Positions 8,356-28,605 of a stretch of 64,000 nt of DNA are shown one piece after another. Position 1 is the first letter of the stretch. Every line of letters begins with the position of its first letter. A program made the position numbers and the translations under genes. Source of the DNA: Candidatus Levybacteria bacterium RIFCSPLOWO2_12_FULL_41_12 (lineage in GTDB: Bacteria > Patescibacteriota > Microgenomatia > Levybacterales > UBA12049); contig MFPL01000002.1 in the NCBI GenBank assembly GCA_001784155.1, positions 108,520 through 172,519 of the forward strand, in the 5' to 3' direction. The notes under the pieces were generated by a model. That model was not told the origin of the DNA. It saw nothing but the letters and a program-made list of their open reading frames with translations, and did no database searches.

Positions 8356-8815
8356 AAAACTTGTTTTAGGTTCGATCACTGTTCTACTCGTTATAGTATC
8401 TATGGCAATTGTTATTTCACGCCTTAATCAAGGCTCCGGGCTCTTAAGCACGCCGAGGGTAGAGCTCTCCGATAAATCCTTTACAGTTGCTGTAGCGGAT
8501 GAACCCAAAGAGCAGGAAAAAGGATTATCCGGAAAGAACAACCTACCAAAAAATCGAGGAATGCTTTTTGTTTTTGGGAAGCCTGACTACTATTCTTTCT
8601 GGATGAAAGACATGAAGTTTCCAATAGATATTATTTTTATAAACGGGGATAAGGTGGTAAAAATCTATCACAATGTCCCAACTCCCCCACAAAGCGGTGG
8701 ACTAGCTGTCTATCAAACGCCCCAGCCAGCAGACAGGGTATTAGAAATTAATGCAGGTCTTTCGAAAAAATACAATTTCAAAGAAGGGGACAAGGTAAAA
8801 ATAGAAAACATATGA
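8285..8815 (+). CDS. DUF192-like secreted or membrane-anchored protein (start uncertain; may begin near 8350)
   Basis: The ORF as given starts at a GTG and overlaps the previous gene by 70 nt. It has a TM/signal segment and a C-terminal region (MLFVFGKPDYYSFWMKDMKFPIDIIF...VLEINAG) typical of DUF192. Confidence 0.5.
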   Translation: MSPKEFHIQQPKLLPNYLKKLPSKKLVLGSITVLLVIVSMAIVISRLNQGSGLLSTPRVELSDKSFTVAVADEPKEQEKGLSGKNNLPKNRGMLFVFGKPDYYSFWMKDMKFPIDIIFINGDKVVKIYHNVPTPPQSGGLAVYQTPQPADRVLEINAGLSKKYNFKEGDKVKIENI

Positions 8816-8824
8816 TAGGCTTCT

Positions 8825-9841
8825 ATGAAAATTTTAGGAATAGAAACTAGCTGTGATGAGACATCTGCAGCAATTGTAGAATCTAACAAGTCTTCGCTAA
8901 ATCTTCTATCAAATATCGTTGCCTCCTCAGTCGAGCTTCATGCGAAAACAGGAGGAATAATTCCTGAAAATGCTGCACGCGAGCAGCTAAGATATATCAT
9001 TCCTGTAATAAAGGAGGCATTAGAAAAGTCTGAGCAAAAGAAAGGAATGCCAGACATAGATGCAGTCGCAATTACAGTAGGCCCGGGACTCATGGGATCG
9101 CTAGTCGTAGGCGTAGAGACAGCAAGAGTCCTGTCGTACATTTGGAAAATCCCCTTAATTCCAGTAAGCCATCTTTATGGACACATCTACGCTAACTTCA
9201 TTGGTAGAAATCCTGACGATATTCCTTTTCCAGCTATATCCCTAGTTGTGTCAGGAGGGCATACGGACTTGGTGGTCATAAAAAAACATAAAGACATAAA
9301 ATGGATCGGCGGAACACGCGATGATGCAGCGGGAGAAGCACTAGACAAAATTGGTAGGCTTATCGATCTTCCCTATCCAGCGGGGCCAACAATAGAAAAA
9401 TTGGCGCTAGAGGGCGATCCCAAAAGGTTTGATCTTCCTAGGCCTATGATAGGAAGTCCTGATTTTGATTTTTCCTTCTCGGGTTTGAAAACAGCAGCGC
9501 TTCGCGAGGTAAAAGCAATTAAAAAACTAGATGAACAAACAAAACGCGATCTTTGTGCGTCTGTCCAGAAAGCAATAATAGCTGTGCTTATTAGAAAAAC
9601 TTTAAAAGCTGCACGAAAATATGAAGCAAAATCAATTCTTCTAGGCGGTGGAGTTACTGCAAACCAAAGTCTCCGCGACGAACTTGAATTAGAAATTGAA
9701 AATTCTAAATTGAAAATTAAACTTTTTGTCCCAACAAAAAGTTTGTGTACCGACAACGGCGCAATGATAGCCGCAGCTGCTTTCTTTCAAAAAGAGGAAT
9801 CTTGGAAAGATATGCAAGCTTCTCCCTCTCTTCACTTTTGA
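8825..9841 (+). CDS. tsaD: tRNA N6-adenosine threonylcarbamoyltransferase TsaD (Kae1/Gcp)
   Basis: 338 aa. MKILGIETSCDETSAAIV, HLYGHIYANF and SGGHTDLVV motifs of the Kae1/TsaD family. Confidence 0.9.
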   Translation: MKILGIETSCDETSAAIVESNKSSLNLLSNIVASSVELHAKTGGIIPENAAREQLRYIIPVIKEALEKSEQKKGMPDIDAVAITVGPGLMGSLVVGVETARVLSYIWKIPLIPVSHLYGHIYANFIGRNPDDIPFPAISLVVSGGHTDLVVIKKHKDIKWIGGTRDDAAGEALDKIGRLIDLPYPAGPTIEKLALEGDPKRFDLPRPMIGSPDFDFSFSGLKTAALREVKAIKKLDEQTKRDLCASVQKAIIAVLIRKTLKAARKYEAKSILLGGGVTANQSLRDELELEIENSKLKIKLFVPTKSLCTDNGAMIAAAAFFQKEESWKDMQASPSLHF

Positions 9842-12906: not shown

Positions 12907-13356
12907 ATGAATTCCAAGGTAATAGTAGCACTGGTAGCTGTATTAATTCTCGTAGTGGTGGGGGGAGGATTTCTTCTGATCAGTAGGTCAAAAGCTCCGA
13001 CAGCAGTGCCGGTTGTACCAAGCACAACATCCGAGAGCACTCCAACACCAGAAACAACCCAGGAAGAATCACAAAGCCCAACTGCTAACGAGACCGAGGT
13101 AACGCTTTCCGAAACCGGATTCTCACCCAAAACTATAACCATAAAGGCTGGAGATAAGGTGATATGGATCAACAATTCAGGCAAAATGGCAACAGTAAAT
13201 TCAAACCCCCATCCCATACATACGTCTTATAAAGAATTGAACCTGGGAAACTTCGACGATGGAGAAAAGCTGGAGTTAGTTTTTCCAAATGCAGGTACCT
13301 ATAACTACCACAATCACCTAAACGCTTCTCAGGGTGGAACTGTAATAGTAGAATAA
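12907..13356 (+). CDS. Membrane-anchored cupredoxin-fold domain protein (Cys ligand absent)
   Basis: 149 aa. TM helix, Thr/Ser/Pro-rich linker, then GFSPKTITIKAGDKVIWINNSGKMATV...NAGTYNYHNHLN...GTVIV. This is a plastocyanin-like topology with the type-1 Cu Cys replaced by Asn. Confidence 0.45.
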   Translation: MNSKVIVALVAVLILVVVGGGFLLISRSKAPTAVPVVPSTTSESTPTPETTQEESQSPTANETEVTLSETGFSPKTITIKAGDKVIWINNSGKMATVNSNPHPIHTSYKELNLGNFDDGEKLELVFPNAGTYNYHNHLNASQGGTVIVE

Positions 13357-13361
13357 TTCTT

Positions 13362-13540
13362 ATGTGTTATAACTGCGGGTGTGGACTACCAAACGATGAT
13401 ATGGGCAGAGGCAAAGTAACCGAGGGTGGCTCTTCTTTAACTGAAGACGATATCAAGAAAATGGCCGACGACTGGGGAATGAGCTTGGATGAGGCAAAGA
13501 AAAATATTTTAGATCTTCTCCAAACGCAACTCAAAAAATA
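13362..13540 (+). CDS. Possible small acidic Cys-rich protein (59 aa), below the ORF-track threshold
   Basis: MCYNCGCGLPNDDMGRGKVTEGGSSLTEDDIKKMADDWGMSLDEAKKNILDLLQTQLKK. It fills the gap between two co-oriented genes but has no obvious SD. Confidence 0.2.
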
Positions 13541-13548
13541 AGGGCAGG

Positions 13549-16449
13549 ATGGACTCTAAGAATCTAAATACACAGCAGCTTAAGGCTATAAACCACGGAA
13601 AAGGACCTCTTCTTATCATTGCCGGTGCGGGAACAGGCAAAACAACTGTAGTAACAGAGCGAATAAGCCGTCTCATCGTAGAGAAAAATCTATCCCTGTC
13701 AAGCGTTCTGGCTTTGACTTTTACCGATAAAGCCGCTTACGAAATGCAGGAAAGAATAGATATACTTCTCCCCTACGGATATACAAATCTTTGGATTCAT
13801 ACATTTCATTCTTTTTGCGACCGTATACTTAGAGACGATGCACATATAATAGGTATTGATCCAGGATATAAATTGATTTCAGAACCTGAGTCAGTACTAC
13901 TTCTTCGTCGGAGCATCTTCGATCTTGGCCTTAAATACTTTATGCCTCTTGGCAATCCTACTAAATTCTTAGATGCGCTTCTAAAACATTTTTCAAGGCT
14001 TAAGGACGAAGACGTTACGCCTGATGAATATATGGTCTGGGCTAAAAACCTGCCTGCCGGCAGGCAGGACAAAAACAATAAGGATGAGGACCGGAGGGTT
14101 GAGACGGAACAATATCAAGAATTGGCAAATGCCTATAAAAAATATGAGGATCTTAAGGTAAAAGAATCAGCTATGGACTTCTCCGATCTCATATCTAACA
14201 CCCTACTAATGCTGCGAAAAAGGCCACAAATACTTAAGAAATATCAAACGCAATTTAAGTTTATTTTAGTGGATGAGTTTCAAGACACGAACTATGCACA
14301 AAATGAGTTGGCAATACTATTAGCAGGGGATGACAAAAATATAACTGTTGTCGCTGATGACGATCAATCTATTTATAGATTCCGTGGGGCAGCTGTATCA
14401 AACGTTCTGCAGTTTAAGAAGAATTTTCCAAAAGCTGAGGTCGTGACTTTAACCCAAAACTACAGATCAACGCAGGAAATACTTGATGCATCATACAGAC
14501 TAATACAAAACAATAATCCAAATAGGCTTGAGATAGTTGAGAAAATAGACAAGAAGCTTAAAAGCCAAGTAAAGAAGCACGGCGAAGCGATTGGATTTAT
14601 CCATGAAAGACGCTCGGAGGACGAAGCCGATAAGATAGCAAGAACTATTGAAGATTTAGCAAAATTATACGAATACAAAGATATTGCTATTTTGGTGAGG
14701 GCGAATAATCACGCATCACCAGTCTCTACAGCGCTTCAAAGAAGAAGAATTCCCTATCGGTTTCTAGGACCAGGACACTTATTTCAGCAGGAAGAAATCA
14801 AGGACTTAATTTCTTACCTAATGTTTCTAACCAACCTTTCAGACACGGTCTCGCTTTTTAGAGTACTGTCAATGGATATATTTGATATTTCTCAGATTGA
14901 ACTTAATTATCTTTTAAATTTTGCAAAGAAAAATAATTTTACTTTGTTTGAAGCGCTCTCAGATGATAGACTGGCTTTCCTGAAGGAGGATACCCGCAAT
15001 AAACTAGAAAGCTTTAGGAATATGGCAGAAAGACATCTTAATAAGAGCAGAAAGGAGCAGGCTGGACAAATTCTTTATTACTTTTTGGTTGACTCTGGCC
15101 TTTTTTCTACTCTTCAAAAAACAGACTCGATAAAAGAAGAGAGGCGCGTACAAAATATTGCGAAGTTCTTTGATAGAATAAAAAGCTTTGAAGCTGAAAG
15201 GGTAGATAGTAATATTTTTATCTTAGCTGAATGGCTTGCCCTTATGCTTCAGATGGGAGATAGTCCGACTGCTGCTGACACAGATGCATCCGAAAGTAAT
15301 GCAGTAAATATCTTAACAGTCCATTCTTCTAAAGGGCTCGAATACAAAGTTGTTTTTTTAGTTAATTTAGTATCTGATCGTTTCCCATCTAGGGAAAGAT
15401 CCGAAAAAATACCCTTACCGCCCTCAATCATAAAAGAGAAAATCCCTAAAGATACCGATTTTCACATTGAAGAAGAAAGAAGGCTTTTTTATGTAGGGAT
15501 GACCAGAGCCCGTGAAAGGCTTTTTTTCACCGCAGCAGATTATTATGGTGGCGGAAAGAGAGCAAAAAAACTCTCTCAATTCATTTTTGAAGCCTTACCG
15601 GATGCTGAAAAACTCGAGAATCTGAGGTCCAAAGCAGAACAATTAACTCTCAGTGAGACAGTCTCCGCATACAATATGCCCGAGGACAAAGACGAAGCCA
15701 AAGAACCTTTCAAAGTTAGCTACGTTACGTTCTCGAATCTTCAAATGTTTGATATCTGTCCTCTTCATTACAAAGCAAAAGTCATTTTTAATATTCCTAC
15801 ACCTACAGCATCTGTCCAAAGCTTCGGAATATCTCTTCACAGTACGCTTTATAAATTTTATAAGGAAATAGTCCAAGGAGACGACCCAAAACTCAGCAGA
15901 CTACAGGAGCTTTATAAAGAAGAGTGGATAAGTGAGGGGTATGACAGTAGGAAGCATGAAGAAGAACGCTTTTTACAGGGCAAAAATATGCTTAATGAGT
16001 TTTATAAAGATGCTAAAGATTTTAAATCGAAGCCTTTGGGGCTTGAACTACCATTTTCATTCATATTAAAAAACGGAGTTAAGGTGTTCGGAAAGATGGA
16101 TAGAATTGATAAATTAGGTGATGGAATAGAAATAATTGATTATAAAACAGGGGGAGATAACCCGAAGGCTAAAACTTCACACGAGCTACAACTTGCCATG
16201 TATGCTTTGGCTGCAACAAAGGTTAAAGACGATATTCTTAATCGCGATCCTAAAGACATCAAGTTAACACTTCACTTCCTGGATGGGAATATAAAAAAGT
16301 CTATGAATTTCACTAAAGAAGATTTAAAAAAGCTCGAAGACGCTTTAATAGAAAAGGTTGCGGAAATTGAACAAAGCGATTTCAAATGCAGCGGGAATAC
16401 TCTTTGTCAGAAGTGTGAATATAAGATGCTTTGCTCGACTTATTCTTAA
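13549..16449 (+). CDS. UvrD/PcrA-family helicase fused to C-terminal PD-(D/E)XK nuclease with Cas4/AddB-like 4-Cys cluster
   Basis: 966 aa. N-terminal GAGTGKTTVVTERI (Walker A), DEFQDTN, VVADDDQSIYRFRGA and TVHSSKGLEYKVVF helicase motifs. C-terminal FDICPLHYK...MDRIDKLGDGIEIIDYKTG...QLAMYALA...CSGNTLCQKCEYKMLC has the RecB nuclease motifs plus C-x5-C-x2-C-x5-C. Confidence 0.8.
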   Translation: MDSKNLNTQQLKAINHGKGPLLIIAGAGTGKTTVVTERISRLIVEKNLSLSSVLALTFTDKAAYEMQERIDILLPYGYTNLWIHTFHSFCDRILRDDAHIIGIDPGYKLISEPESVLLLRRSIFDLGLKYFMPLGNPTKFLDALLKHFSRLKDEDVTPDEYMVWAKNLPAGRQDKNNKDEDRRVETEQYQELANAYKKYEDLKVKESAMDFSDLISNTLLMLRKRPQILKKYQTQFKFILVDEFQDTNYAQNELAILLAGDDKNITVVADDDQSIYRFRGAAVSNVLQFKKNFPKAEVVTLTQNYRSTQEILDASYRLIQNNNPNRLEIVEKIDKKLKSQVKKHGEAIGFIHERRSEDEADKIARTIEDLAKLYEYKDIAILVRANNHASPVSTALQRRRIPYRFLGPGHLFQQEEIKDLISYLMFLTNLSDTVSLFRVLSMDIFDISQIELNYLLNFAKKNNFTLFEALSDDRLAFLKEDTRNKLESFRNMAERHLNKSRKEQAGQILYYFLVDSGLFSTLQKTDSIKEERRVQNIAKFFDRIKSFEAERVDSNIFILAEWLALMLQMGDSPTAADTDASESNAVNILTVHSSKGLEYKVVFLVNLVSDRFPSRERSEKIPLPPSIIKEKIPKDTDFHIEEERRLFYVGMTRARERLFFTAADYYGGGKRAKKLSQFIFEALPDAEKLENLRSKAEQLTLSETVSAYNMPEDKDEAKEPFKVSYVTFSNLQMFDICPLHYKAKVIFNIPTPTASVQSFGISLHSTLYKFYKEIVQGDDPKLSRLQELYKEEWISEGYDSRKHEEERFLQGKNMLNEFYKDAKDFKSKPLGLELPFSFILKNGVKVFGKMDRIDKLGDGIEIIDYKTGGDNPKAKTSHELQLAMYALAATKVKDDILNRDPKDIKLTLHFLDGNIKKSMNFTKEDLKKLEDALIEKVAEIEQSDFKCSGNTLCQKCEYKMLCSTYS

Positions 16450-16468
16450 AGTCTATGGTAAAATACTC

Positions 16469-16826
16469 AGGCTGGGAAGATAGATCGCTAGTCCGATGTT
16501 TCATCGGACAGGAAAGTCCAGACAGGTATAAAGACAGGGATGGAGTGTAAGCTCCGACTAGCAATAGCTGGTGATTAGATTCTTAATACTACTAAACGGA
16601 ATCTAAAACAGGTTTTGAATTGACAAAACTTGAGAGCAACAGAGACGAGTAGTTCTGAAACGGGCAATCCTACCTGCTGTAACCTCCGAATGATGCGTTA
16701 CTACCTTCTTTATGGGAGCATCAAAGTTTGAGGGCATCACCTAAAAGGTGGGAGATGTAACAAATATTACAACTCAGATAGATTGCGATCTAAAACAGAA
16801 TCTGGCTTATTATCTTCCCAGACACA
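16469..16826 (+). ncRNA. rnpB: RNase P RNA (bacterial type A-like)
   Basis: P1 pairing GCUGGGAAGAUA (16471-82) with UAUCUUCCCAGAC (16811-23). P3 hairpin UCCGAUG-UUU-CAUCGGA. CR-I CAGGAAAGUCCAGAC (consensus AGGAAAGUCCGGGC) followed by AUAAAGACAGGGAU (compare AUAGGGCAGGGUG). CR-V ACAGAAUCUGGCUUAU (consensus ACAGAACCCGGCUUA). The CCAGA/UCUGG change is compensatory for the P4 helix. AGAUAGAUUGC...ACAGAA resembles E. coli AGAUGAAUGAC...ACAGAA. Confidence 0.7.
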
Positions 16827-16868
16827 AGGCTGTGTCTGGTTTTGACCAGCACGCAGTTTTGTGTCTGT

Positions 16869-16952
16869 GGCAGGTGCAGTATTGTACCTGCCCAATATCT
16901 CGCTCGGCAGGTGAGGAATGTACCGATGGCAGGTGCAGTATTGTACCTGCCC
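16869..16952 (+). repeat. Two identical 25-nt hairpin elements (GGCAGGUGCAGUAUUGUACCUGCCC) 59 nt apart; the second is followed by a U-tract and sits 8 nt upstream of the GIY-YIG start
   Basis: Exact direct repeat at 16869-16893 and 16928-16952. Each is a 7-8 bp stem with an 8-nt loop. The second is followed by GUUUUGUAUG. Confidence 0.5.
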
Positions 16953-16959
16953 GTTTTGT

Positions 16960-17226
16960 ATGAAGTTTTACTATGTTTATGCCCTCTACAATAAATCTAA
17001 AAACTTTATTTATATTGGGTATTCAGAAAATTTAAAACCTCGAGTAACTTCACATAATCTCGGTAAAAATAGGTCAACAAAACCCTATATTCCCTTAGAG
17101 GTTATTCATTATGAAGCTTATCGTAGTAAGAAAGATGCTAAACGCAGAGAAGCCTATTTGAAATCTAATAAAGGGAAAACAACTCTTATGACAATGCTAA
17201 AGGAATATTTTGCAGAAACTTTTTGA
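16960..17226 (+). CDS. GIY-YIG nuclease family protein (YhbQ/COG2827-like)
   Basis: MKFYYVYALYNKSKNFIYIGYSENLKPRVTSHNLGKN...YIPLEVIHYEAY matches small GIY-YIG proteins (YVYIL....LYIGYT.DL.RRL.EHN.G). Start moved to the ATG at 16960 because the longer ORF reads through the hairpin repeat. Confidence 0.7.
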   Translation: MKFYYVYALYNKSKNFIYIGYSENLKPRVTSHNLGKNRSTKPYIPLEVIHYEAYRSKKDAKRREAYLKSNKGKTTLMTMLKEYFAETF

Positions 17227-17239
17227 TTCCAAATAATTT

Positions 17240-17512
17240 CTATCTTATAGCCCTTTTTAGAGTTTTTCCTGGTGTGAATCCCGGGGCCTTTCTAGCTGCT
17301 ATCGTAATCTTCTCACCGGTCTTTGGATTTCTTCCTGGTCTTTCCTCTCTGTTTCTAACGCTAAAGGTACCAAAACCCGTTATTACTACTTTTTCCCCTT
17401 TTTTCAAAGAGTCTCTTATACCATTGAGAGTAGCGGAAACTGCGTCTCTTGAGGCTTTGTTCGTAAGATTGGCTTTTTTCGCTACGAGTTCTATTAAATC
17501 TTTTTTAGTCAA
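17240..17512 (-). CDS. hup: DNA-binding protein HU
   Basis: 90 aa. MTKKDLIELVA...GFGTFSVRNREERPGRNPKTGEKITIAARKAPGFTPGKTLK is the canonical HU/IHF signature. Confidence 0.9.
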   Translation of the reverse strand: MTKKDLIELVAKKANLTNKASRDAVSATLNGIRDSLKKGEKVVITGFGTFSVRNREERPGRNPKTGEKITIAARKAPGFTPGKTLKRAIR

Positions 17513-17580
17513 GTAAAATCACCTCCTTTATAGATTAGGTTTACAATACAATGCAAACGAAAAGTTGTCAAGAGGGGACT

Positions 17581-18846
17581 TTAGTTAAATTCTGAGGAAA
17601 CTGATCGAAACTCTCTAATAGCTGTTACTTTTACTTCCCCTGGAATTGCAAGCGCGTTGGTAACTTCTTGTCTTATTTTTTCTGCAACTACTACAGTCTG
17701 CGCATCGTCAAGCTTCCCCGGATCGATTATTACCCGCAGCTCTCTACCTGCTTCAAATGCGTAGGCTTCCGCAACTCCTTCGTATTTTTTAGCAATATCT
17801 TCCATTTCCGTAAGTCTCTTTGCGTATTCTTCTACATCCTCATACCGGGCTCCCGGTCTTGCGCCCGATATTGCATCTGCGATTGACACGATTACCGACT
17901 CGACAGATGAAAAAGGACGGTCTTCATGATGCTCTGCCACACAATTAACTACTGCCTCAGGGATATTAAATCTTTTCAGATATTCTACTCCCAGCTTTAC
18001 ATGACTTCCTTCGCCCGGAACTACTTTTCCAATATCGTGAAACAGGCATCCGAGTCTTACTATATTTACATCTGCGCCTATTTCCTCAGCGATGTGAATT
18101 CCGATTTTTGTCTCCTCAAGAGTGTGCACTACCAGATTTTGTCCGTAAGATGTCCTGAATTTAAATCTCCCAAGCATTGATATCAACTCCCTGGGCAAAT
18201 TAAACACTCCCGCCTCGTGAGAAAGCTTTTCCCCCTCTTCAAACATTATTTTCTCAACTTCCTCTTCTGTTTCTTTTACAATCTCCTCTATCCTAAAGGG
18301 CTGTACCCTAGTGTCTTTAATAAGCTTCTCAAGAGCCCGTCTAGCTACCTCACGCCTTATCTGATCAAAAGAGGAAAGTCTTATTATTCCTTCTTCGTCG
18401 AGATCCACGTCTACTCCTGTAGCCTGCTCGAATGCACGAATGTTACGACCTTCTTTACCAATTATTCTTCCCTTCATTTCTTCATCGGGAATCTTAACTA
18501 TGGAGACGGTGTATTCTGCTATATAATTGAGGGCGCCGTGGCGCATTGAGTCGAGTAGTATTTCCTGTGCTTTTTTGTCAGAAATTCTTTTTATTTCTTC
18601 TTCACGCTCTTTTAAGATCTTTGCGATTTCTTGAGCCTGAGAGTTTTCGACCTCAGCTAGAAGGCTTGCTTTTGCCTCATCCGCGGTAAGGCCTGAAGCT
18701 TTCTGAAGCTTCTTAACGTATTCTTCCCTTTCTTCTTTAAGCCTATCTTTTTCTTTTTCGAGATCCTCGCGTTCTTTATCTATTTTATCCTGCTTTTCTA
18801 TTAATCTCTTTTCGAGATCTAAAAGATCCGGGTTTTGATTTTTCAT
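17581..18846 (-). CDS. rny: Ribonuclease Y
   Basis: 421 aa. N-terminal charged coiled coil, a KH domain (IIGKEGRNIRAFEQATGVDV) and an HD domain (HTLEETKIGIHIAEEIGADVNIVRLGCLFHDIGK). Confidence 0.85.
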   Translation of the reverse strand: MKNQNPDLLDLEKRLIEKQDKIDKEREDLEKEKDRLKEEREEYVKKLQKASGLTADEAKASLLAEVENSQAQEIAKILKEREEEIKRISDKKAQEILLDSMRHGALNYIAEYTVSIVKIPDEEMKGRIIGKEGRNIRAFEQATGVDVDLDEEGIIRLSSFDQIRREVARRALEKLIKDTRVQPFRIEEIVKETEEEVEKIMFEEGEKLSHEAGVFNLPRELISMLGRFKFRTSYGQNLVVHTLEETKIGIHIAEEIGADVNIVRLGCLFHDIGKVVPGEGSHVKLGVEYLKRFNIPEAVVNCVAEHHEDRPFSSVESVIVSIADAISGARPGARYEDVEEYAKRLTEMEDIAKKYEGVAEAYAFEAGRELRVIIDPGKLDDAQTVVVAEKIRQEVTNALAIPGEVKVTAIREFRSVSSEFN

Positions 18847-21309: not shown

Positions 21310-21380
21310 CGGGATGTGGTTTAATGGTAGAATATGCGGCTGGGGGCCGTATGGTCTGAGTCCGATTCTCAGCATCCCGA
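21310..21380 (+). tRNA. tRNA-Pro (anticodon GGG)
   Basis: Acceptor CGGGAUG/CAUCCCG (7 bp) with discriminator A. U8 present. Short D-arm with G-U pairs. Anticodon stem UGCGG/CCGUA with loop CUGGGGG (U33, GGG anticodon, G37). Variable loop 4 nt. T-arm CUGAG-UCCGAUU-CUCAG. No encoded CCA. Confidence 0.6.
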
Positions 21381-21612
21381 CTGAAGCTCTAAAAACTGTC
21401 GGCTCCCTCCAAAGGCGGGCAGGCGTTTCCAATTATCTTGGGAGAAAAACGCAAAAATTTTAATGTACTCAAATGGCCGCCCTAGTTGTACTCAAACCCT
21501 TTCGGATCTGTCTAAAGCGGCCATTAAAAAACCGAAAGGAATAGTTTGAGTACCGTTTTAATATAGCAGGTTCACAAAGTTTTTCAACTGATATTTTCTA
21601 TATCAGCAGCTA

Positions 21613-23001
21613 TTAGAAAAAGGTTCGCATTTTTTCTATAGAGGTTTTTAAAACATTGTATTCGGTTTTACCATTGTCTTTTTGATGATGAATTTGATTT
21701 CTGATAAATGTATGTATACTAACCTCATTTGCATTTCTTTTATAAGGAGATTTTTTAGGTTCTTTTTTCTCACCAACAAAATAATCATTATCAAAATCTT
21801 TAATCTTCTTATCGTCTCCATTTATGAATTTTAGTTCTTCGAAAAGCTCGTTGTGATATTCTTCGGTCGCAAGATTAAAAGCTAGGTAATTTGTTTCGTT
21901 AGCTGAAATATAGGGTAAAACTCTTTTTTGTATCGCAGATGTATCCATACCGTTGTTATTGATTATGCTAATTCTTACATTACCGTTGTAAAATAATTGT
22001 TTTACTAAAAGAGGAGAGTGGGACGTAAGAATGATTTGTGCTTCTTTGGAAAATTCCAGTAAAAACTTAACAAATTTTTCCTGTAACGTTGGGTGCAGAT
22101 GAAGTTCGGGTTCGTCAATTAAAATTATTAATTGCTTACCGCTCTGCTTGGCTAAGTAAAAAGAATACAAAAGGGCAAAAATCATCTCATAGCCCGAACC
22201 AAGGTCATCCAATAAAATTTGCTGATTATTATCTTTCTTTGTGGCAAAGAATGCGTTTTTAAATGGTTGATAGTTATCTAAAAAATCTAATTTTATTTGA
22301 GAACCACTAATCTCATGAAATTTTTTTACAGCTTCTGACAGGAAGTTATTTTCAACTTTGTCTTTTTTGATTCTAGTATCTAATTCCTCATTCAAATTAT
22401 CAACTTGAGTTTTTTTTAGATATTGATAGCTAAAATCTTCCATCAATCTATCGAATCTAGTTGTGTTATAGGTGCCAGAGCGAATTTGAAAGATACGATT
22501 TTTGTCTAAGAATAAAACATCATTTTCGTCAAATCTTTTTGATTTCCAAGGATTATTTACCCCAACTCTTAAATCAGGACTATCTTCCTTTATGTTTTCG
22601 CCATCTGCTTGGATAAATCTGCGATCAAGAATGATCATGCTAGATAAATATGCCTTAAAATCTCGGGCTCTAATATTTGCTTTGAAAGAAAACCCATGCG
22701 CTTTGAATGATCCTGTAATTGTTTTTGTAACTTCAAAATTAGCTTTTGCATATAATTCAATTAGAATATCATTCTTCGGATCATTGAAGTCGCTAATAGA
22801 TACGGACTCTGTTTTATATTCCAATAATGGAAGTGCGAGAGCATCTAAAAGGGCTGTTTTCCCACTTCCATTTTCGCCCACAAATACATTTAATCCCGAA
22901 CCCTCGTTTATATTATCTGGCGTATTTATATCCTCAATTTCGAAATATTTTTCTGGTGAAAATAATCTAAAATTTTTTATTTTAAGTGATTTTATAAACA
23001 T
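21613..23001 (-). CDS. ABC-type ATPase of the OLD/AriA/PtuA/GajA-like family (no TOPRIM or HNH detected)
   Basis: 462 aa. N-terminal IKNFRLF...VFVGENGSGKTALLDAL (Walker A). Long coiled or insert region. LIILIDEPELHLHPTLQ (Walker B, D-loop, H-loop). About 110-aa C-terminal tail with no recognisable nuclease motif. Confidence 0.65.
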   Translation of the reverse strand: MFIKSLKIKNFRLFSPEKYFEIEDINTPDNINEGSGLNVFVGENGSGKTALLDALALPLLEYKTESVSISDFNDPKNDILIELYAKANFEVTKTITGSFKAHGFSFKANIRARDFKAYLSSMIILDRRFIQADGENIKEDSPDLRVGVNNPWKSKRFDENDVLFLDKNRIFQIRSGTYNTTRFDRLMEDFSYQYLKKTQVDNLNEELDTRIKKDKVENNFLSEAVKKFHEISGSQIKLDFLDNYQPFKNAFFATKKDNNQQILLDDLGSGYEMIFALLYSFYLAKQSGKQLIILIDEPELHLHPTLQEKFVKFLLEFSKEAQIILTSHSPLLVKQLFYNGNVRISIINNNGMDTSAIQKRVLPYISANETNYLAFNLATEEYHNELFEELKFINGDDKKIKDFDNDYFVGEKKEPKKSPYKRNANEVSIHTFIRNQIHHQKDNGKTEYNVLKTSIEKMRTFF

Positions 23002-23058
23002 AAATTCTTTAGCAAAATTATACGCCTGTGGTTATTGATTGGCAATTGATATTTATAT

Positions 23059-23619
23059 CTAGGATTTTGAGGTAACTTGAGCCAACTTTTCTCTAATTAC
23101 TTGTAATTCTTTAATCCTATACTCGTCATTTTCTTTTTTGACTGGAGCTTTCATTCCTTCCATGTTCAAATTACTTTCGTAGTTAAGCCCATCAACTATT
23201 TGTACTACTTTACTATCGTCTAGAGCTTTATCTGTAAAAGCTTTTAGTTTATGTTGGTCTGTAGTAGTTATTTCAACTTCTATAAATTTTCTCCAAACGC
23301 CATCATGCTCCCATTCTTTTAGTGTTTGAAATTGTTTTTCATTAAGTCCCCACAAAACTCCGGCTACCTGACCTGTTCCCGGTTTTACTGTGTAAGCTCT
23401 AAAATTTGACCCCCAAACTTCCAAAAGAGATTTTCGCGCAACTTCTGGAATTTGTTCTAGATCTTGAATTCCCAAAATCATTCCATCAACTCTTGCTCCA
23501 TATCCGCCGTCTAATTTTAAATCGTCACCTACAAGATTTGAGGCTCTTAAAATATCTACAATTCTAGTTTTTTCCCGATTGGCTCCGTATCCGAAAAATA
23601 AAATCTTTGCCATAAACAA
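23059..23619 (-). CDS. Gamma-glutamyl cyclotransferase (GGCT/AIG2)-like protein
   Basis: 186 aa. N-terminal ILFFGYGANREKTRI matches the AIG2/GGCT YGSN signature. Upstream of and co-oriented with the ATPase, with a 57-nt gap. Confidence 0.5.
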   Translation of the reverse strand: MFMAKILFFGYGANREKTRIVDILRASNLVGDDLKLDGGYGARVDGMILGIQDLEQIPEVARKSLLEVWGSNFRAYTVKPGTGQVAGVLWGLNEKQFQTLKEWEHDGVWRKFIEVEITTTDQHKLKAFTDKALDDSKVVQIVDGLNYESNLNMEGMKAPVKKENDEYRIKELQVIREKLAQVTSKS

Positions 23620-23707
23620 GTTAATATTATGTTATCACAAATTTAAGAAAAGGCTAGATTTTAGATACATATTGACATTATTCTTAAATGTCATCCATAA
23701 TAATCTT

Positions 23708-25078
23708 ATGAACCCATCAACCAATGGTGAACCTCCAGCGGGAGCAACGCCAGCAGAAGCAACAGGACAAGCTCCAGTAATTCCTACTTCATCAGAAACG
23801 CCTCAAACAGACCCAAGTCTTTTATCGCAAGACAGACATGGAGAATCACCCTTGTCTCATGAACCAATACAATCATCTTCGGAGGCTGCTCTTGACATGC
23901 TTGAAGCTAGAAGTAAGAAATTACGGGAAGCAGCGGAAACTCCAACCGCCCCAGAGCAATTCCGCAGTCAATATGAAACAGTGCAGCCGGTTTTATATGC
24001 CGCATCGCACAATAACGTACTTGGAGAGACAGAACGTACTCAAAGAGATGTTGTTGAACGAGGACAAACTTATATTACGAGTGATGCAGGCGCAATACTT
24101 GGATCAGCCGGCCGTCTAGAAAGACAAATAGAAGTTCTTTTAGCTGTAAATGGGATCACGGAAACAGGAATTGGCGATGAAAAGCAAAGACTTTTATCGG
24201 CTAAGGGATCAAAAGGCATGTCTATATCAGGTAAGCTTGCGCAAATGGCGCGTTTAGATTTTTCAACAACCGGAATAGATTCCCGAGGTGATTTAAGGGA
24301 CTCGCTCGAAGAAGCTGTTTTACATGCAAGAGCATTAAATGAAGTTTCTTCTGAGCTTATAGATAAAACACTTCGAAAAATGCGCAAGGATATAATAGGA
24401 TTAGGAGATTTAGATGATTTCCATAAAGCTGCTTATTTAGCTGCAGTAGATCAAGGAACCGATCCGCTAGATTTAGAGGGCGTTGCGGGACAGTTTGCTG
24501 ATTACTTAAAAAGAAAAGACGAAGCCATGAAAGCGGATCCAGATGCACCTGTTTTAGTTCGGTATGCAGAGATGGGTAATAACGTGCATACTATTTTATT
24601 GGAGAAAGCAGGAGAAGGAATTAAATTTAATTTTGATCCGGATTCAGGTAAATATGGAGCTAGTATAGAAGGTTCGGCTGCAACATACGAACCCGATACA
24701 AGCCCGTATACATCTATGTATCCCCAAGACCGTCTAGTTGGAAAAACAGGACCCATAGAAATTCCGCTAGGAAACGCTTTAGACTGGGAAACATATAATG
24801 GATTTACGGATAAGCCTAATTCTCTTGTGCCAATTACTGTTGGTTCGGATGCTATTATTGCTGACGTACGGGATGATCTAGAATATCAAGTTGGAGCTGC
24901 TGAAAAATATGGAGGCGCTGGGAATTTTGAAAACGCTGTAGTGAGGGAAGCAACATTTTTGGGCATAACAGATAAAGTTTTTGCAGGCCCGGAAGGAGAA
25001 AAACTTCTTGCTAATATTGCAGAATTTAATTCTAGACCAAAAACACCTCAGTATTCAGGTAATCGTTTAGATTATTAA
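23708..25078 (+). CDS. Hypothetical protein with disordered Pro/Thr/Ala/Ser-rich N-terminus; GC-richer than surroundings
   Basis: Start set at the ATG at 23708 (MNPSTNGEPPAGATPAEATG...). The longer ORF-track start overlaps the divergent GGCT gene. TTGACA-N18-CATAAT lies just upstream. No TM helices and no recognisable catalytic motifs. Confidence 0.5.
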   Translation: MNPSTNGEPPAGATPAEATGQAPVIPTSSETPQTDPSLLSQDRHGESPLSHEPIQSSSEAALDMLEARSKKLREAAETPTAPEQFRSQYETVQPVLYAASHNNVLGETERTQRDVVERGQTYITSDAGAILGSAGRLERQIEVLLAVNGITETGIGDEKQRLLSAKGSKGMSISGKLAQMARLDFSTTGIDSRGDLRDSLEEAVLHARALNEVSSELIDKTLRKMRKDIIGLGDLDDFHKAAYLAAVDQGTDPLDLEGVAGQFADYLKRKDEAMKADPDAPVLVRYAEMGNNVHTILLEKAGEGIKFNFDPDSGKYGASIEGSAATYEPDTSPYTSMYPQDRLVGKTGPIEIPLGNALDWETYNGFTDKPNSLVPITVGSDAIIADVRDDLEYQVGAAEKYGGAGNFENAVVREATFLGITDKVFAGPEGEKLLANIAEFNSRPKTPQYSGNRLDY

Positions 25079-25183
25079 CTATCCACCGTTATGAAAGGCA
25101 ATAATACTCACTAAAGATCAAACGCTGAGTAAAAAATTAACAGAGAAAGAAAAGATTATGACATTTCTTTTTCATGTAAAACT

Positions 25184-25816
25184 TTACTGCGAGTAAATCT
25201 GTAATCCGCTTGGATCGGAAAGTGTAAGTGTCTGACTGCAGGAATTATAATTACCCGTAACAATAACCGGGAAATTGGAAAATTTTGTATAGTCGACTTT
25301 TGAAGAAAAGGGCAGAGAAATTACGCTTTCATCATTTTTAACTAACACAACTTTATTGTGGGTTTGTTTGGGAGCAAAATAATCTAGGAATTGGGATAAA
25401 ACCGGAATTCCCGAAGACTCCTGCTCCATAACATTCAAAGTTTTGACAGTACCTATATAACTCTGTACTCCTTTTTCGCAAAGAATTTTTCCTCCTCCGA
25501 AAACTCCAAATACTCCAAGAGCCAAAGCTACTCCGGCAATTCCAAGACTTCCCTTAAGCGTGAAGGAAAATGCTTTCTGTCTTTTAATATCTTCCAAAAG
25601 TTCGACAATTTTTCGAAGGGGATTTCCTACGCGTACATCCAAAAGATCATCTTGACTCTTATGATATCTGACGTTGTCTCCGAAAAATTTATCGAGCGCG
25701 CCCTGAGGCTTTGGAGGACTGCCGGGTTTTTCGACATGAACAAAATGCCCCTCGCTGTCTCTTGGCTTACTTTCCGCAATTGTACTTTTTATCTCGCTTT
25801 TTACTTTTTCGGCCAT
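25184..25816 (-). CDS. Hypothetical single-pass membrane protein
   Basis: 210 aa. Central Gly/Ala-rich TM helix (GSLGIAGVALALGVFGVFGGG). Downstream of and co-oriented with the JAB gene. Confidence 0.45.
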   Translation of the reverse strand: MAEKVKSEIKSTIAESKPRDSEGHFVHVEKPGSPPKPQGALDKFFGDNVRYHKSQDDLLDVRVGNPLRKIVELLEDIKRQKAFSFTLKGSLGIAGVALALGVFGVFGGGKILCEKGVQSYIGTVKTLNVMEQESSGIPVLSQFLDYFAPKQTHNKVVLVKNDESVISLPFSSKVDYTKFSNFPVIVTGNYNSCSQTLTLSDPSGLQIYSQ

Positions 25817-25877
25817 ACTTTAATATAGCTTTGGATCTATAGCAATTGCAAGTTTACCTACTTATAACTTTGTTAAA

Positions 25878-26720
25878 TCAAGCTAGACGTGTCAGCGTCG
25901 CAGCAGTCGAAGTTTCATTGAAGTCTCCTTCGTACAATCCAAACTTTCTATTTCTGGCTTCGTCTATCAATTCGTCTCTCCAAATTCCACGAATTCTATC
26001 TTCAGATGTTCCTTTTTGTTTTTCTTTGTTCAATAAATGTAGCCCTCTACGACCAGCACTTCCTCTTCGTGGGTTTCTGTATTCTTCGTCCCAATTATTT
26101 GCAAGTTCAATATCCGAATTTTCTGCTACAACAAGTAAATAAATTTTATCTGATGCGATAACAATTGAGCAGATTGCAGAAGCACGACCGTCAGGCCTCT
26201 TTATTTGTGAAGCAAGATTATCAAAGTCAGGACCGCTGAATATAGCACCACTACTTGGGTGAGTATGTATTATTCCAAATAATTCTTCCTGTGGGAAAAA
26301 TTTAAATCCTGGGGACTGTTCTGTAGTAATTAAGTTCCTACCGAATACATAGTAGTCTGAAGCCCAATCAGGTTTATCACGTCGCCAATCTTCCTTTTGA
26401 AGTAAATCCTGAAGTCTCTGGGCTGTTTCTGATTCAGATAAACCTGTTAAATCCTCAAAAAGTGTTGCTCCCACAAAGTCTCTATGTTGTCCCTTGAATG
26501 CACCATCAATAGAAAGTTTTTCCTGAGTTCTCGTTAAAAATGCCATCTGTTCTGCATCTGTTTCGCTCTCCTGTTTTTTCATTCCATGAAACCCTGATAT
26601 AAGCTCAGGTTCATCGATCGCCACTGTTCTTGGAAGTTCGTCAAATCTCTTTCCTTCTAACGATAAAAGCGTAGGATGGGCTAAACCCTCTTGTCCTTCT
26701 ATGTTGGTTATATCCGACAT
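25878..26720 (-). CDS. JAB/MPN (JAMM) metalloprotease-domain protein, RadC/Mov34-like motif
   Basis: 280 aa. EELFGIIHTHPSSGAIFSGPD fits the JAMM motif E-x(n)-H-x-H-x7-S-x2-D exactly. The N-terminal roughly 130 aa are unassigned. Confidence 0.55.
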   Translation of the reverse strand: MSDITNIEGQEGLAHPTLLSLEGKRFDELPRTVAIDEPELISGFHGMKKQESETDAEQMAFLTRTQEKLSIDGAFKGQHRDFVGATLFEDLTGLSESETAQRLQDLLQKEDWRRDKPDWASDYYVFGRNLITTEQSPGFKFFPQEELFGIIHTHPSSGAIFSGPDFDNLASQIKRPDGRASAICSIVIASDKIYLLVVAENSDIELANNWDEEYRNPRRGSAGRRGLHLLNKEKQKGTSEDRIRGIWRDELIDEARNRKFGLYEGDFNETSTAATLTRLA

Positions 26721-27510
26721 AGGGTTATTATAGTAAATTCATTTTTAAATATCTCTATAATCAAGTGGGACTGGCTTGTGGATTGAGCTGGAACTATGAG
26801 GAACTAACCGAGGGTTTTTACCCTCGGTTTTTAAACCACAACTTGTGGGTACCACAATTTTGTGATAGCTCGAAGCTAAACTGTGGGTTTTGTGGATTTT
26901 AATTTTTTACCCACAAAACAGTTGTGGAGCGGCGTCCGCCGCCCCCGCCCCTCGGGATTTACGCCCTGAAAAGGAGGACTGCCGTCACGCCAAACTCTAC
27001 TTACCACCGACTTTCGGATAGGCAGTCCGACCCAAGCGAGCACCGCGAAAATTACTTTTAATTGAAATCCCGGCGGTGCGAGCCATTATGATGTCTCCCA
27101 AAGTTCTTGCCTAAATAGGGGTAGAATATCGCGGCGGGGGCAAAAGCGGATTACCCCGCCGACTGCAGGCGGTTCTAAGTTAGAAGAAAGTTAGCCCCGC
27201 CGAAGCGGGGCGAGTAAGAGACTGTAAAGAGTTTCTAAAAATGTACATCTGTGGGCGAAGCCGCCCCTAGGCGGCTCTCTCGCATAAAGGCGGGGTCGCC
27301 GCTCCTTTTCGCGGGTGGGTGGGTTATTAATTTGGTATAATAAAAATCGCGCGTTCCTTAGGGCATAAAATACCCCGAAGCAAAGTTTCACTTGCGACGG
27401 GGCAGGCAAAAGAGCGAGGCCGAAGGCCGAGCGGTACAATAATAGGACGAGCGAAGCGAGGACTACCTTTTAATAAAAGAAGTTCTAACTTTTTCGTATA
27501 TCACGACCAA
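26721..27510. other. About 0.8 kb noncoding block, locally GC-rich and dense in GC stem-loops; candidate structured RNA or foreign remnant, unassigned
   Basis: No credible ORF. ORFs 27191..27439 and 27511..27804 look spurious. Many perfect GC hairpins (CCGAGGG-UUUUUA-CCCUCGG, CCCCGC-CGAA-GCGGGG, GCCGCC-CCUAG-GCGGC). Long-range complementarity between CCACAACUUGUGGGUA (26835-50) and UACCCACAAAACAGUUGUGG (26909-28). GC runs such as GGCGGCGTCCGCCGCCCCCGCCCCTCGGG. Confidence 0.4.
26809..26831 (+). terminator. Intrinsic-terminator-like hairpin (CCGAGGG UUUUUA CCCUCGG UUUUU)
   Basis: 7-bp GC-rich stem followed by U5 on the plus strand. It would terminate a short plus-strand transcript starting after a TATAAT at 26753. 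Confidence 0.4.
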
Positions 27511-27724
27511 TTACCTTGGCCTTCTAATTAACGGTCCCAAGCGGGGAATCCACCTGTCATGTATGTAGGTGGGGCTTGCCGTTGAACTTTTATGGTTCCT
27601 GGGTTCTGTGTAGGAATTCAAGCGAGCTGTTCTTTGTGGACTTGCTTTCCAAGCTTCACCATAGTCTTCTGGCATAAGAGGACGACCCCTGTGAGATTGT
27701 ATTTCTACTTCAAGCCAAGACATA

Positions 27725-28189
27725 TTACCTCTTTGGAGATTGTTTCTTGCGTCTGGATTTTCCGCCCATTCCCACTTTCCGTCTTTCTCTTGCTCTTTGA
27801 TCACGAGTCAAAAGTCCTTGCTTCTTAAGAAGCGGTCTTAAGGATGCGTCAAGTTCCGAAAAAGCCCTTGCAATCCCCATAACCGCAGCGTCCAATTGGC
27901 TCGAAGTTCCTCCACCATGAACCCTGATGGTAGCTGAGAATTTGTTAAGACTATCTGTAATTTTAAAAGGTAATTCATATCTGGCCCTTGCCACTTCTCC
28001 ACCGAAATATTCTTTTATTGCACGCCCATTAACCACCAAATCACCTTTTTTAAGGGTAACTTCGCCGAACTTTAGATTATCCGGTAATTTGGCATAAAGC
28101 CTTACCCTGGCTACAGCTTCTCTTCTTCGACCCACTGCAGAAACGTAAACTTTAGTGCCTTTTTTATTTGTAATCTTTTCTTCAGCCAT
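27725..28189 (-). CDS. rpsI: 30S ribosomal protein S9 (N-terminally extended)
   Basis: 154 aa ending ...GGKSRRKKQSPKR. The S9 core is GGGTSSQLDAAVMGIARAF. Confidence 0.9.
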   Translation of the reverse strand: MAEEKITNKKGTKVYVSAVGRRREAVARVRLYAKLPDNLKFGEVTLKKGDLVVNGRAIKEYFGGEVARARYELPFKITDSLNKFSATIRVHGGGTSSQLDAAVMGIARAFSELDASLRPLLKKQGLLTRDQRARERRKVGMGGKSRRKKQSPKR

Positions 28190-28191
28190 AT

Positions 28192-28605
28192 TTATGCTTT
28201 CTTAAATTTTTCTTGATATTTATGTTCTTCTCCCGAAAATACGAAAAGCCTTTTTAACATTTGGTCCCTAAGTTTATTCTGAGGAAGCATCCCCTTAACA
28301 GCGTGGATTATTATTTCTTCAGGCTTTCTCGCTCTTAGCTGCTCCAATGTTTCAGACTTATATCCTCCCGGAAAACCAGAATGCCTTGAATAAACTTTAT
28401 TTTTTTCTTTTGTTCCGGTTACTCTTACTTCTTTCGCATTAACAACTACAACGTAATCCCCGCAATCAAGATGTCTTACGAAATAAGATTTGCTTTTCCC
28501 CATCAATAATTTAGCAATATCGGTAGATATTCTTCCCAAGATTTTGTCCCCTACGTTAATTAAATGCCATTCCCTTTGTATGTCTTTGTCTCTTGTTGCT
28601 TTCAT
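28192..28605 (-). CDS. rplM: 50S ribosomal protein L13
   Basis: 137 aa. WHLINVGDKILGRISTDIAKLLMGK is the typical L13 N-terminus. Confidence 0.9.
   Translation of the reverse strand: MKATRDKDIQREWHLINVGDKILGRISTDIAKLLMGKSKSYFVRHLDCGDYVVVVNAKEVRVTGTKEKNKVYSRHSGFPGGYKSETLEQLRARKPEEIIIHAVKGMLPQNKLRDQMLKRLFVFSGEEHKYQEKFKKA

Follow-up and report, generated by a model that had tools for sequence, protein, structure and literature searches.

A conserved 380-nucleotide structured element between a JAB-like gene and rpsI in Candidatus Levybacteria, a likely gene for a free-standing RNA of an undescribed family

In a 64,000-nucleotide (nt) stretch of the genome of Candidatus Levybacteria bacterium RIFCSPLOWO2_12_FULL_41_12 (contig MFPL01000002.1, positions 108,520 to 172,519 of the forward strand; hereafter the window, whose own numbering is used unless another locus is named), a GC-rich non-coding element lies between a JAB-like gene and the ribosomal protein gene rpsI. 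We consider it likely that the core of this element, here called B, encodes a free-standing structured RNA, accessory in nature and of a family not described before. B is conserved in related genomes about as strongly as a tRNA gene, it contains helices with compensatory changes, no reading frame in it is kept and it has no match among the known RNA families. Loci in other genomes are designated by our own numbers (L016 and so on), and the features of the region are collected in Table 1.

Conservation of the element

The gap between the JAB-like gene and rpsI extends from 26721 to 27724 and the open reading frames (ORFs) inside it are all short. An initial annotation made from the sequence had described a GC-rich, hairpin-dense non-coding block at 26721–27510 and had proposed that it was an unassigned large structured RNA. 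The location of the block was right, but the true gap reaches further to the right and the conserved element itself spans 26926–27509, with boxes kept in one other genome pushing its limit to approximately 26835. The GC content is 0.50–0.55 over 26800–27400 versus 0.36–0.42 in the flanks, and no stretch of the window with 50% GC or more is longer than 26851–27450, the mean of the window being 40.4%. The fold of 26900–27330 was compared with dinucleotide shuffles, giving z-scores of -5.2 for the + strand and -3.5 for the - strand. These values, together with the conservation and covariation described below, agree with the description of the block. The hairpins, runs and complementary stretches that had been listed were all found in the sequence, including CCGAGGG/CCCTCGG at 26809–26831, the run GGCGGCGTCCGCCGCCCCCGCCCC at 26927–26950, the complementarity of approximately 26851–26864 with 26912–26925, and two hairpins within B (Table 1).

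The search for homologs started from 80 species-level rpsI neighbourhoods of Levybacteria and their relatives, in which nhmmer recovered the block in L016 and fragments of it in L081 and L036. A second search, in which a 21-nt pattern taken from the best-conserved stretch was scanned over metagenome contigs, produced six further distinct copies (L084, L086, L093, L095, L096 and a partial copy in L085) as well as four chance matches, and seven look-ups of relatives of the window's S9 protein added one new copy, L113. Three assemblies carry the block unchanged, and Candidatus Levybacteria bacterium RIFOXYA1_FULL_41_10 shares its S9 protein exactly with the window. Conservation in related genomes had been set beforehand as a test of the proposal; B is present in seven other Levybacteria contigs (L016, L084, L086, L093, L095, L096 and L113), and compensatory changes are found among the copies. 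Since the collections were scanned with exact patterns, the true range of the B family is probably underestimated.

Ungapped identity between copies is 74–88% for B, 77–86% for an AT-rich neighbouring element, X, 73–82% for tRNA-Pro and 62–74% for rpsI DNA. The identity of B is thus at the level of tRNA-Pro and above that of rpsI DNA, suggesting that B is constrained about as strongly as a tRNA. The S9 proteins of the genomes that bear B are only 53–74% identical, and seven ribosomal proteins and RpoA, with identities of 59–79%, show no clear conflict with the identities of B. Horizontal transfer of B was considered on the basis of tree conflict and was rejected, as the apparent conflict fell to noise after gap columns were removed. 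Comparison with phage genomes by blastn and with viral contigs by two pattern scans gave no match, or chance matches only.

Predicted fold and coding potential of B

The structure of B was examined with RNAalifold and by pair counting in seven full copies. The consensus has 66 pairs, with 95.7% of cells paired, and 10 of these pairs are altered on both sides, compared with 5.0±1.6 in shuffles (0 of 500 reach 10), a control that overstates significance, and with 1–4 when the partner strand is slid. The mirrored structure on the + strand is 89.5% paired, with 11 pairs altered on both sides. Four pairs covary in helix H9 (for example GCACCGC/GCGGUGC versus GAGCCGA/UCGGCUC versus AGGCCGC/GCGGCCU) and four in H3 (GCCGCC/GGCGGC versus ACUUCC/GGAAGU), and pair 173/381 in helix Pb is C-G, U-A or U-G among the copies. 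A covariance model of H9 and H10 gives each of the seven full copies a score of 126–151 bits and has no other match in 815 kb.

The most economical fold of B would consist of a terminal helix, P1, closing a three-way junction whose arms are in turn closed by helices Pa and Pb. Pa is predicted to form from ACCCCGCC/GGCGGGGU, and Pb from UCCGC, a bulge and GCCCCCGCC with GGCGGGGGC-GCGGA. The same CCCCGCC/GGCGGGG core closes both arms, and because Pa and Pb share this core a nested alternative, in which the 5' strand of Pa pairs with the 3' strand of Pb, is possible. The ORFs inside the gap had been regarded as spurious, and this view holds: no reading frame of B is open in all homologs, the longest stop-free stretches shift in frame and position, and the internal ORFs of the gap have zero Pfam matches.

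Comparison with known RNA families

B has no match in Rfam 15 (4,227 families), either at the gathering score or at E values up to 10, when 1.6 kb, 401 nt around B, or six relatives are used as the query. The cmscan search suggested in the initial annotation was run on the block, the 401 nt and the six homologous loci and gave chance-level matches only, with GOLLD, ROOL, HEARO, OLE and raiA among the families covered. Over all of the Rfam runs, gathering and permissive, on the window, the block, the 401 nt, the six loci, L085 and the tRNA-Pro region, only tRNAs and a sub-threshold RNase P RNA were found.

The absence of a match to transfer-messenger RNA (tmRNA), signal recognition particle (SRP) RNA, 6S RNA and group II domain V, which had already been remarked on, is borne out by these scans and by motif checks on the homologs. 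ARAGORN finds no tmRNA in the window, and no Rfam tmRNA model matches at E values up to 10. The terminal helix of B, GGAGCGG/CCGCUCC, has A3-U70 and not G3-U70, and a tmRNA-like piece that had been pointed out near 26781 is TGGATTGAGC at 26779, one of a cluster of TGTGG boxes. On both strands of the seven homologs of B we found no T-loop, no acceptor stem with G3-U70, no SRP motif, no group II domain V motif and neither of the P4 strands of RNase P RNA (GGAAAGUCC; ACAGAA...GGCUUA).

A class A RNase P RNA is present elsewhere in the window, as had been proposed. It occupies 16472–16825 on the + strand, within a 1.1-kb gap (16449–17581) and 10 kb from B, and it carries the canonical P4 sequences AGGAAAGUCC and ACAGAAUCUGGCUUA, although it scores 63.4 bits (E 1e-18) against RF00010, short of the threshold of 100. 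In candidate-phyla bacteria, RNase P RNAs have been reported to fall below the Rfam thresholds (PMC8172020), and the other gaps of the window were checked for this reason. The 750 nt past the RNase P RNA (16826–17580) contain no ORF of at least 120 amino acids (aa) and no Rfam match. A further sub-threshold match, to RF03531 (55 bits versus 65.2), is found at 15442–15539 on the + strand, inside a UvrD/PD-(D/E)XK helicase gene (13549–16449); this family is described as a small RNA within a helicase gene, and the match probably reflects helicase coding sequence.

Introns were also considered. A group I or group II intron was rejected because there is no Rfam intron match and no domain V motif, and the flanks of the element are not the halves of a gene. 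A group I intron in a tRNA gene (PMC13011429 / bioRxiv 2025.07.03.662931) was set aside on similar grounds, as there is no Rfam intron match and no split gene.

The orphan large RNAs OLE, ROOL, GOLLD, raiA and HEARO resemble the predicted RNA of B, a long, GC-rich, multi-helix, stand-alone RNA that contrasts with its AT-rich genome and has a narrow taxonomic range. ROOL and GOLLD, like B, occur near a tRNA gene and variable or mobile DNA. B differs from all of these in that it matches none of them in sequence or structure and in that its core is shorter, at 380 nt, or approximately 585 nt with the adjoining modules A' and A.

Strand of the predicted RNA

We lean towards the + strand as the strand of the B RNA, that is, antisense to rplM-rpsI and the JAB gene. 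On this strand the unpaired bases would be A 38, G 22, U 27 and C 14%, with the reverse on the - strand, and both the minimum free energy and the z-score favour the + strand in five of the seven copies. TTTT follows the closing helix on the + strand and is itself followed by an invariant TGnTATAAT box, and the terminal hairpin of module A is predicted on this strand only. The sole change in the otherwise invariant helix H10, in L113, would give G-U on the + strand and A-C on the - strand, while H4 with its U-rich tail would resemble a terminator inside B if read from the - strand. The sense strand of the RNase P RNA in the window, used as a control, behaves likewise (A minus U of +8, unpaired A 50%, z of -6.7 versus -4.9).

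Several observations weigh against the + strand. Loops of the C(UUCG)G type appear on the - strand in two independently inserted hairpins, H4 (in the window and L095) and the hairpin of A' (in L016). Pairs 173/381, 174/380 and 287/348 can be U-G or G-U on the - strand where the + strand would have C-A or A-C. Neither the window nor L084 shows a convincing + strand promoter ahead of B. The genes flanking the element are on the - strand as well.

Modules flanking B

Promoters and terminators are identified here as consensus matches only. Directly past the closing helix of B, module A' begins with TTTT (27306–27309), followed by the G-rich run GGGTGGGTGGG, TGG-TATAAT at 27333–27341, AAAAATCGCGCG and a lineage-specific hairpin, CCCCG...CGGGG. 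The TGnTATAAT box is found at the same place in six of the six loci that have A', with TGGTAAAT in L085, and it is a putative promoter. Module A, which follows, is conserved as sequence and not as structure, and copies of it are present in L016, L036, L084 (two), L086, L095, L096 and L113 (two). At its + strand end a hairpin, AARGRRGU-loop-ACUUUUU, is predicted on the + strand only, with A and G varying opposite U. A peptide encoded by module A (+ strand ...SGGDYLLERKEVRTFS) was considered and rejected, since no start codon is kept, the changes are not concentrated in third positions and there is an in-frame stop in both of the L113 copies.

On the other side of B, TGTGG/CCACA occurs at 8 sites in 26777–26923 where 0.2 would be expected, making this the densest bin of the window. 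These boxes are kept in L084 only (86% identity), which has a perfect TTATCCACA. The hairpin formed there by AACCGAGGGT and ACCCTCGGTT and followed by T's is terminator-like on the + strand and weak on the - strand; it is not kept in relatives and is missing from the list of the terminator scan. Boxes like TGTGGATAA were examined as part of a possible chromosomal origin, oriC. They are clustered, one alone is within 1 mismatch of the consensus, and the skew does not turn at 26.8 kb, which, together with the transcription of the ribosomal operons at the right towards the boxes, argues against oriC. A TIGR array consists of two alternating repeats of 8–12 nt with 9-nt spacers, in units of about 36 nt, beside a Nop-domain protein (PMC12045711). 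This explanation of the boxes was rejected because they are irregularly spaced, the 'spacers' are kept in L084 and Pfam finds no Nop domain in the five proteins encoded between tRNA-Pro and B.

Genomic context

The same layout is found in four genomes (the window, L084, L086 and L113), in which an optional module A, then A' and B, are followed by variable cargo, by element X and by an optional second module A, with tRNA-Pro past X where the contig extends that far. From this arrangement a variable island bearing defence-like genes would appear to be bordered by B at one end and by X at the other. B adjoins a JAB gene in the window, and its neighbours are a 175-aa ORF and a GajB-like helicase in L084; in L113 the adjoining gene is a 699-aa ORF, and in L095 it encodes a methyltransferase. 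This change of neighbours between genomes makes a role of B as a leader or untranslated region (UTR) unlikely, and a riboswitch or other cis-regulatory leader was rejected because the neighbours differ in the window, L084, L095, L096 and L113.

The defence-like cargo comprises an AriA/GajA/PtuA-like ATPase in the window, the GajB-like helicase in L084 and an AriAB-like protein in L113. Of the five proteins encoded from tRNA-Pro to B, three are without a Pfam match at E values up to 1, and the rest have only JAB, DUF5052, AAA-ATPase and GGACT-type matches; the island ORFs of 499 and 210 aa have no significant family match.

In two genomes a module A inverted repeat of approximately 95 nt encloses A'-B, the cargo and X (L084, 6752–6850 and 10153–10245; L113, approximately 8806–8900 and 13435–13523), and lineage-specific changes common to both module A copies of a genome suggest recombination between the copies. 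The window has a single copy of module A, and beside tRNA-Pro only ...GAAGCTCT is left. At the tRNA-Pro end of the island, next to module A and X, two genomes carry the gene of a large serine recombinase: L113 (13674–14474, with Resolvase, Recombinase and Zn-ribbon domains) and L086 (2715–4226). There is no recombinase in the window and no recognisable transposase or integrase inside any of the cargos.

Other loci depart from this layout. In three relatives of similar distance, L115, L116 and L118, none of B, A and X is present between uppS and recA. In L118 the tRNA-Pro (approximately 13830–13900) lies between uppS and recA on the strand of recA, and the window and L086 have the two genes on opposite strands; an inversion may lie behind this difference. 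In L095, A-A'-B lies 3.3 kb after rpsI between the genes of a polyprenyl synthetase and a methyltransferase, with neither X nor a tRNA gene within the 14 kb examined, and in L096 B adjoins recA. At 13318–13360 of L085, with the same sequence in L081 and L094, the interior of B is gone and its ends are joined as ACCCCGCC-UUUG-GGCGGGGG, so that only the outer helix is left; A' and X are intact, with X directly upstream in the opposite direction. The deletion in this lineage shows that B can be lost, suggesting that it is not essential. A reading of the remnant hairpin as a + strand terminator was dropped, as the T-run sits 10 nt past the stem.

Element X, which stands just past tRNA-Pro in the window and is also found in L084, L086, L113 and L085, is AT-rich and has no Rfam match. 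It has three helices, with a possible pseudoknot (GUACUCAAAC/GUUUGAGUAC, CCUUUCGG/CCGAAAGG and AUGGCCGC/GCGGCCAU), and the G-U and U-G changes in L085 fit the + strand.

The orphan 70-aa ORF, which bounds the conserved non-coding element on the right, is annotated in GenBank (record L002), and the end of rpsI serves as its ribosome-binding site. It found only itself among 5.8 billion proteins, belongs to no Pfam family and has no similarity to the ORF at the equivalent place in L016, and its coding status is doubtful. A possible leftover tRNA-Pro fragment at 27530–27560 has a low-confidence alignment alone behind it. In JGI record L003 there are two odd gene calls, at 1006–1183 and 1424–1765 (window 27504–27327 and 27086–26745, - strand), the products of which have 13 and 29 residues; the first call coincides with modules A and A'.

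Table 1. Features of the region, in their order along the + strand of the window
Feature	Coordinates	Strand	Remarks
recX, recA		-	
tRNA-Pro	21310–21381	+	
Element X	~21445–21600	+	
Five island genes	21613–26720		AriA/GajA/PtuA-like ATPase (21613–23001), weak GGACT-like protein, ORFs of 499 and 210 aa, weak JAB-like protein
JAB-like gene	25878–26720	-	Flanks the gap
Eight TGTGG/CCACA boxes	26777–26925		Beside an AT-rich stretch; consensus ~TGTGG[A/G]T[T/A][T/A], DnaA-box-like
Perfect hairpin followed by T's	26806–26836	+	Arms of 10 nt, 26806–26815 and 26820–26829
Core B	26926–27305	leaning +	380 nt; sole part common to all copies
Helix P1 of B	26926–26934 with 27297–27305		+ strand coordinates, as for all helices of B
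Helix Pb of B	26935–26949 with 27133–27150		
Helix H10 of B	26972–26983 with 27021–27033		
Helix H9 of B	27035–27046 with 27073–27084		
Helix Pa of B	27153–27160 with 27289–27296		
Hairpin CCCCGC-CGAA-GCGGGG	27194–27211		
Helix H4 of B	27195–27212		Variable insert
Helix H3 of B	27258–27277		
Hairpin GCCGCC-CCTA-GGCGGC	27260–27275		
Module A'	27306–27400	+	TTTT, G-rich run, extended -10 box, lineage-specific hairpin
Module A	27400–27509	+	~100 nt; conserved as sequence, not structure
Orphan 70-aa ORF	27511–27723	-	Begins 1 nt past the rpsI stop
rpsI	27725–28189	-	Flanks the gap
rplM	28192–28605	-	

Alternative explanations

Some of the evidence weighs against B being a free-standing RNA gene. 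Its transcription is itself a prediction from the sequence. Pa, most of Pb and H10 are invariant, so that covariation neither supports nor refutes them, and the seven full sequences are kin by descent and come from one phylum. The distribution of B is patchy, with 8 loci, and neither a hidden Markov model built from seven copies nor the H9-H10 covariance model adds any in approximately 815 kb of Levybacteria and Microgenomates rpsI neighbourhoods. This patchiness would also fit carriage on a mobile element. In the main rival explanation, which is possible but rather unlikely, a mobile or invertible island would have the block as its end module, with A as the recombination site, the boxes as an origin or operator, and B as an element-borne RNA or structured DNA site, such as a replication primer or control RNA, serving the island. 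The layout common to four genomes, the A inverted repeats on either side of the island in L084 and L113, the large serine recombinase beside it in L113 and L086, the differing and defence-like cargo and the DnaA-like boxes are all in keeping with such an element, as are the relatives of similar distance in which nothing of the block is present between uppS and recA. The window, however, has no recombinase, no cargo has a recognisable transposase or integrase, and L095 has A-A'-B without X or a tRNA gene in 14 kb. B is also no more alike between genomes than tRNA-Pro is, there is no clear tree conflict and no phage or viral match, the boxes are kept in only one other genome, and the orientation of the genes, with ribosomal operons transcribed towards the boxes, speaks against a chromosomal origin. 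The initial annotation had suggested the decayed end of an integrated element; the position at an island border stands, while a decayed coding gene does not, as no frame is kept. A block without any function of its own, be it a decayed gene or acquired GC-rich DNA with chance hairpins, seems to us highly improbable: its GC content is foreign to the genome and its ORFs are short and spurious, but tRNA-like conservation, compensatory changes and a fold z-score well below the shuffles all argue otherwise.

A part acting in cis within a neighbouring transcript, either as the leader of the JAB operon or as a 3' UTR or terminator of rplM-rpsI on the - strand, is very unlikely in our judgement. In the window and in L016 the element directly follows rpsI and would be on the strand of the flanking genes, and that strand also accommodates the C(UUCG)G loops and several of the wobble pairs. 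Against this, the downstream genes differ in every genome, the element lies beside recA in L096, genes of opposite orientation separate it from rpsI in L084 and L113, and the strand indicators lean to the + strand. The JAB gene, which had been taken to be divergent, is in fact on the same strand as rplM-rpsI and has its own TATAAT 8 nt before its ATG, and this, with the varying neighbours, leaves little of the proposed JAB-operon leader. It is also scarcely credible that B is a strongly diverged RNase P RNA, tmRNA, 6S RNA or SRP RNA missed by Rfam, an explanation that we regard as largely refuted. Its 380 nt and terminal helix do resemble those of RNase P RNA and tmRNA, and the RNase P RNAs of these bacteria score below threshold (PMC8172020), the one in the window at 63 bits versus 100. 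Class A RNase P RNA is similar to B in length, in its paired ends, in tRNA-like conservation and in having a GC-rich helix and hairpin in P1-P2-P3 order, but B is without the conserved P4 sequences and can be lost, as in the L085 lineage. The real RNase P RNA is at 16472–16825, the diagnostic motifs are missing in the seven homologs on both strands, ARAGORN finds no tmRNA, and no such family matches the 401 nt at E values up to 10. The proposal of an unassigned large structured RNA is thus the one that fits the conserved block, its covarying helices, the lack of a kept ORF and the lack of Rfam, tmRNA and RNase P matches.

Conclusions

If B is a free-standing RNA gene, it would yield a transcript of its own, with the + strand the more likely sense strand. 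This RNA may act in trans, whether as a scaffold for proteins, by catalysis or by binding a ligand, and would not regulate the adjacent genes. The conserved TGnTATAAT box that follows on the same strand would probably drive a further small RNA, module A. B itself would be accessory and not essential to the cell. Large bacterial RNAs with complex conserved folds are rare, and those that have been solved are ribozymes, scaffolds of protein complexes or RNA-only assemblies.

The island of B resembles the defence islands of tRNA genes in having differing cargo from the 3' side of tRNA-Pro, and the islands of its relatives resemble invertible segments in their inverted repeats of approximately 95 nt and large serine recombinase gene. 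The window differs from invertible segments in having one repeat and no recombinase, and the segments described here are known from sequence alone. To our knowledge no such tRNA or invertible island has a 380-nt structured RNA gene as its border. More speculatively, and with only a slim chance of being right, B, module A and X could be the RNA parts of an undescribed system that defines, maintains or flips a defence cassette together with the serine recombinase, or B could represent a ribozyme or an RNA-only assembly that is new and specific to candidate-phyla bacteria.

The finding of a true RNase P RNA below the Rfam threshold in the window shows that GC-rich gaps in these genomes need sub-threshold checks before they are called novel. 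Rfam 15 has no family for B, and the present analysis offers the borders of B, a map of its helices, seven relatives and a search model. If the link between B and the island is functional, it would imply the involvement of RNA in the organisation of such islands.

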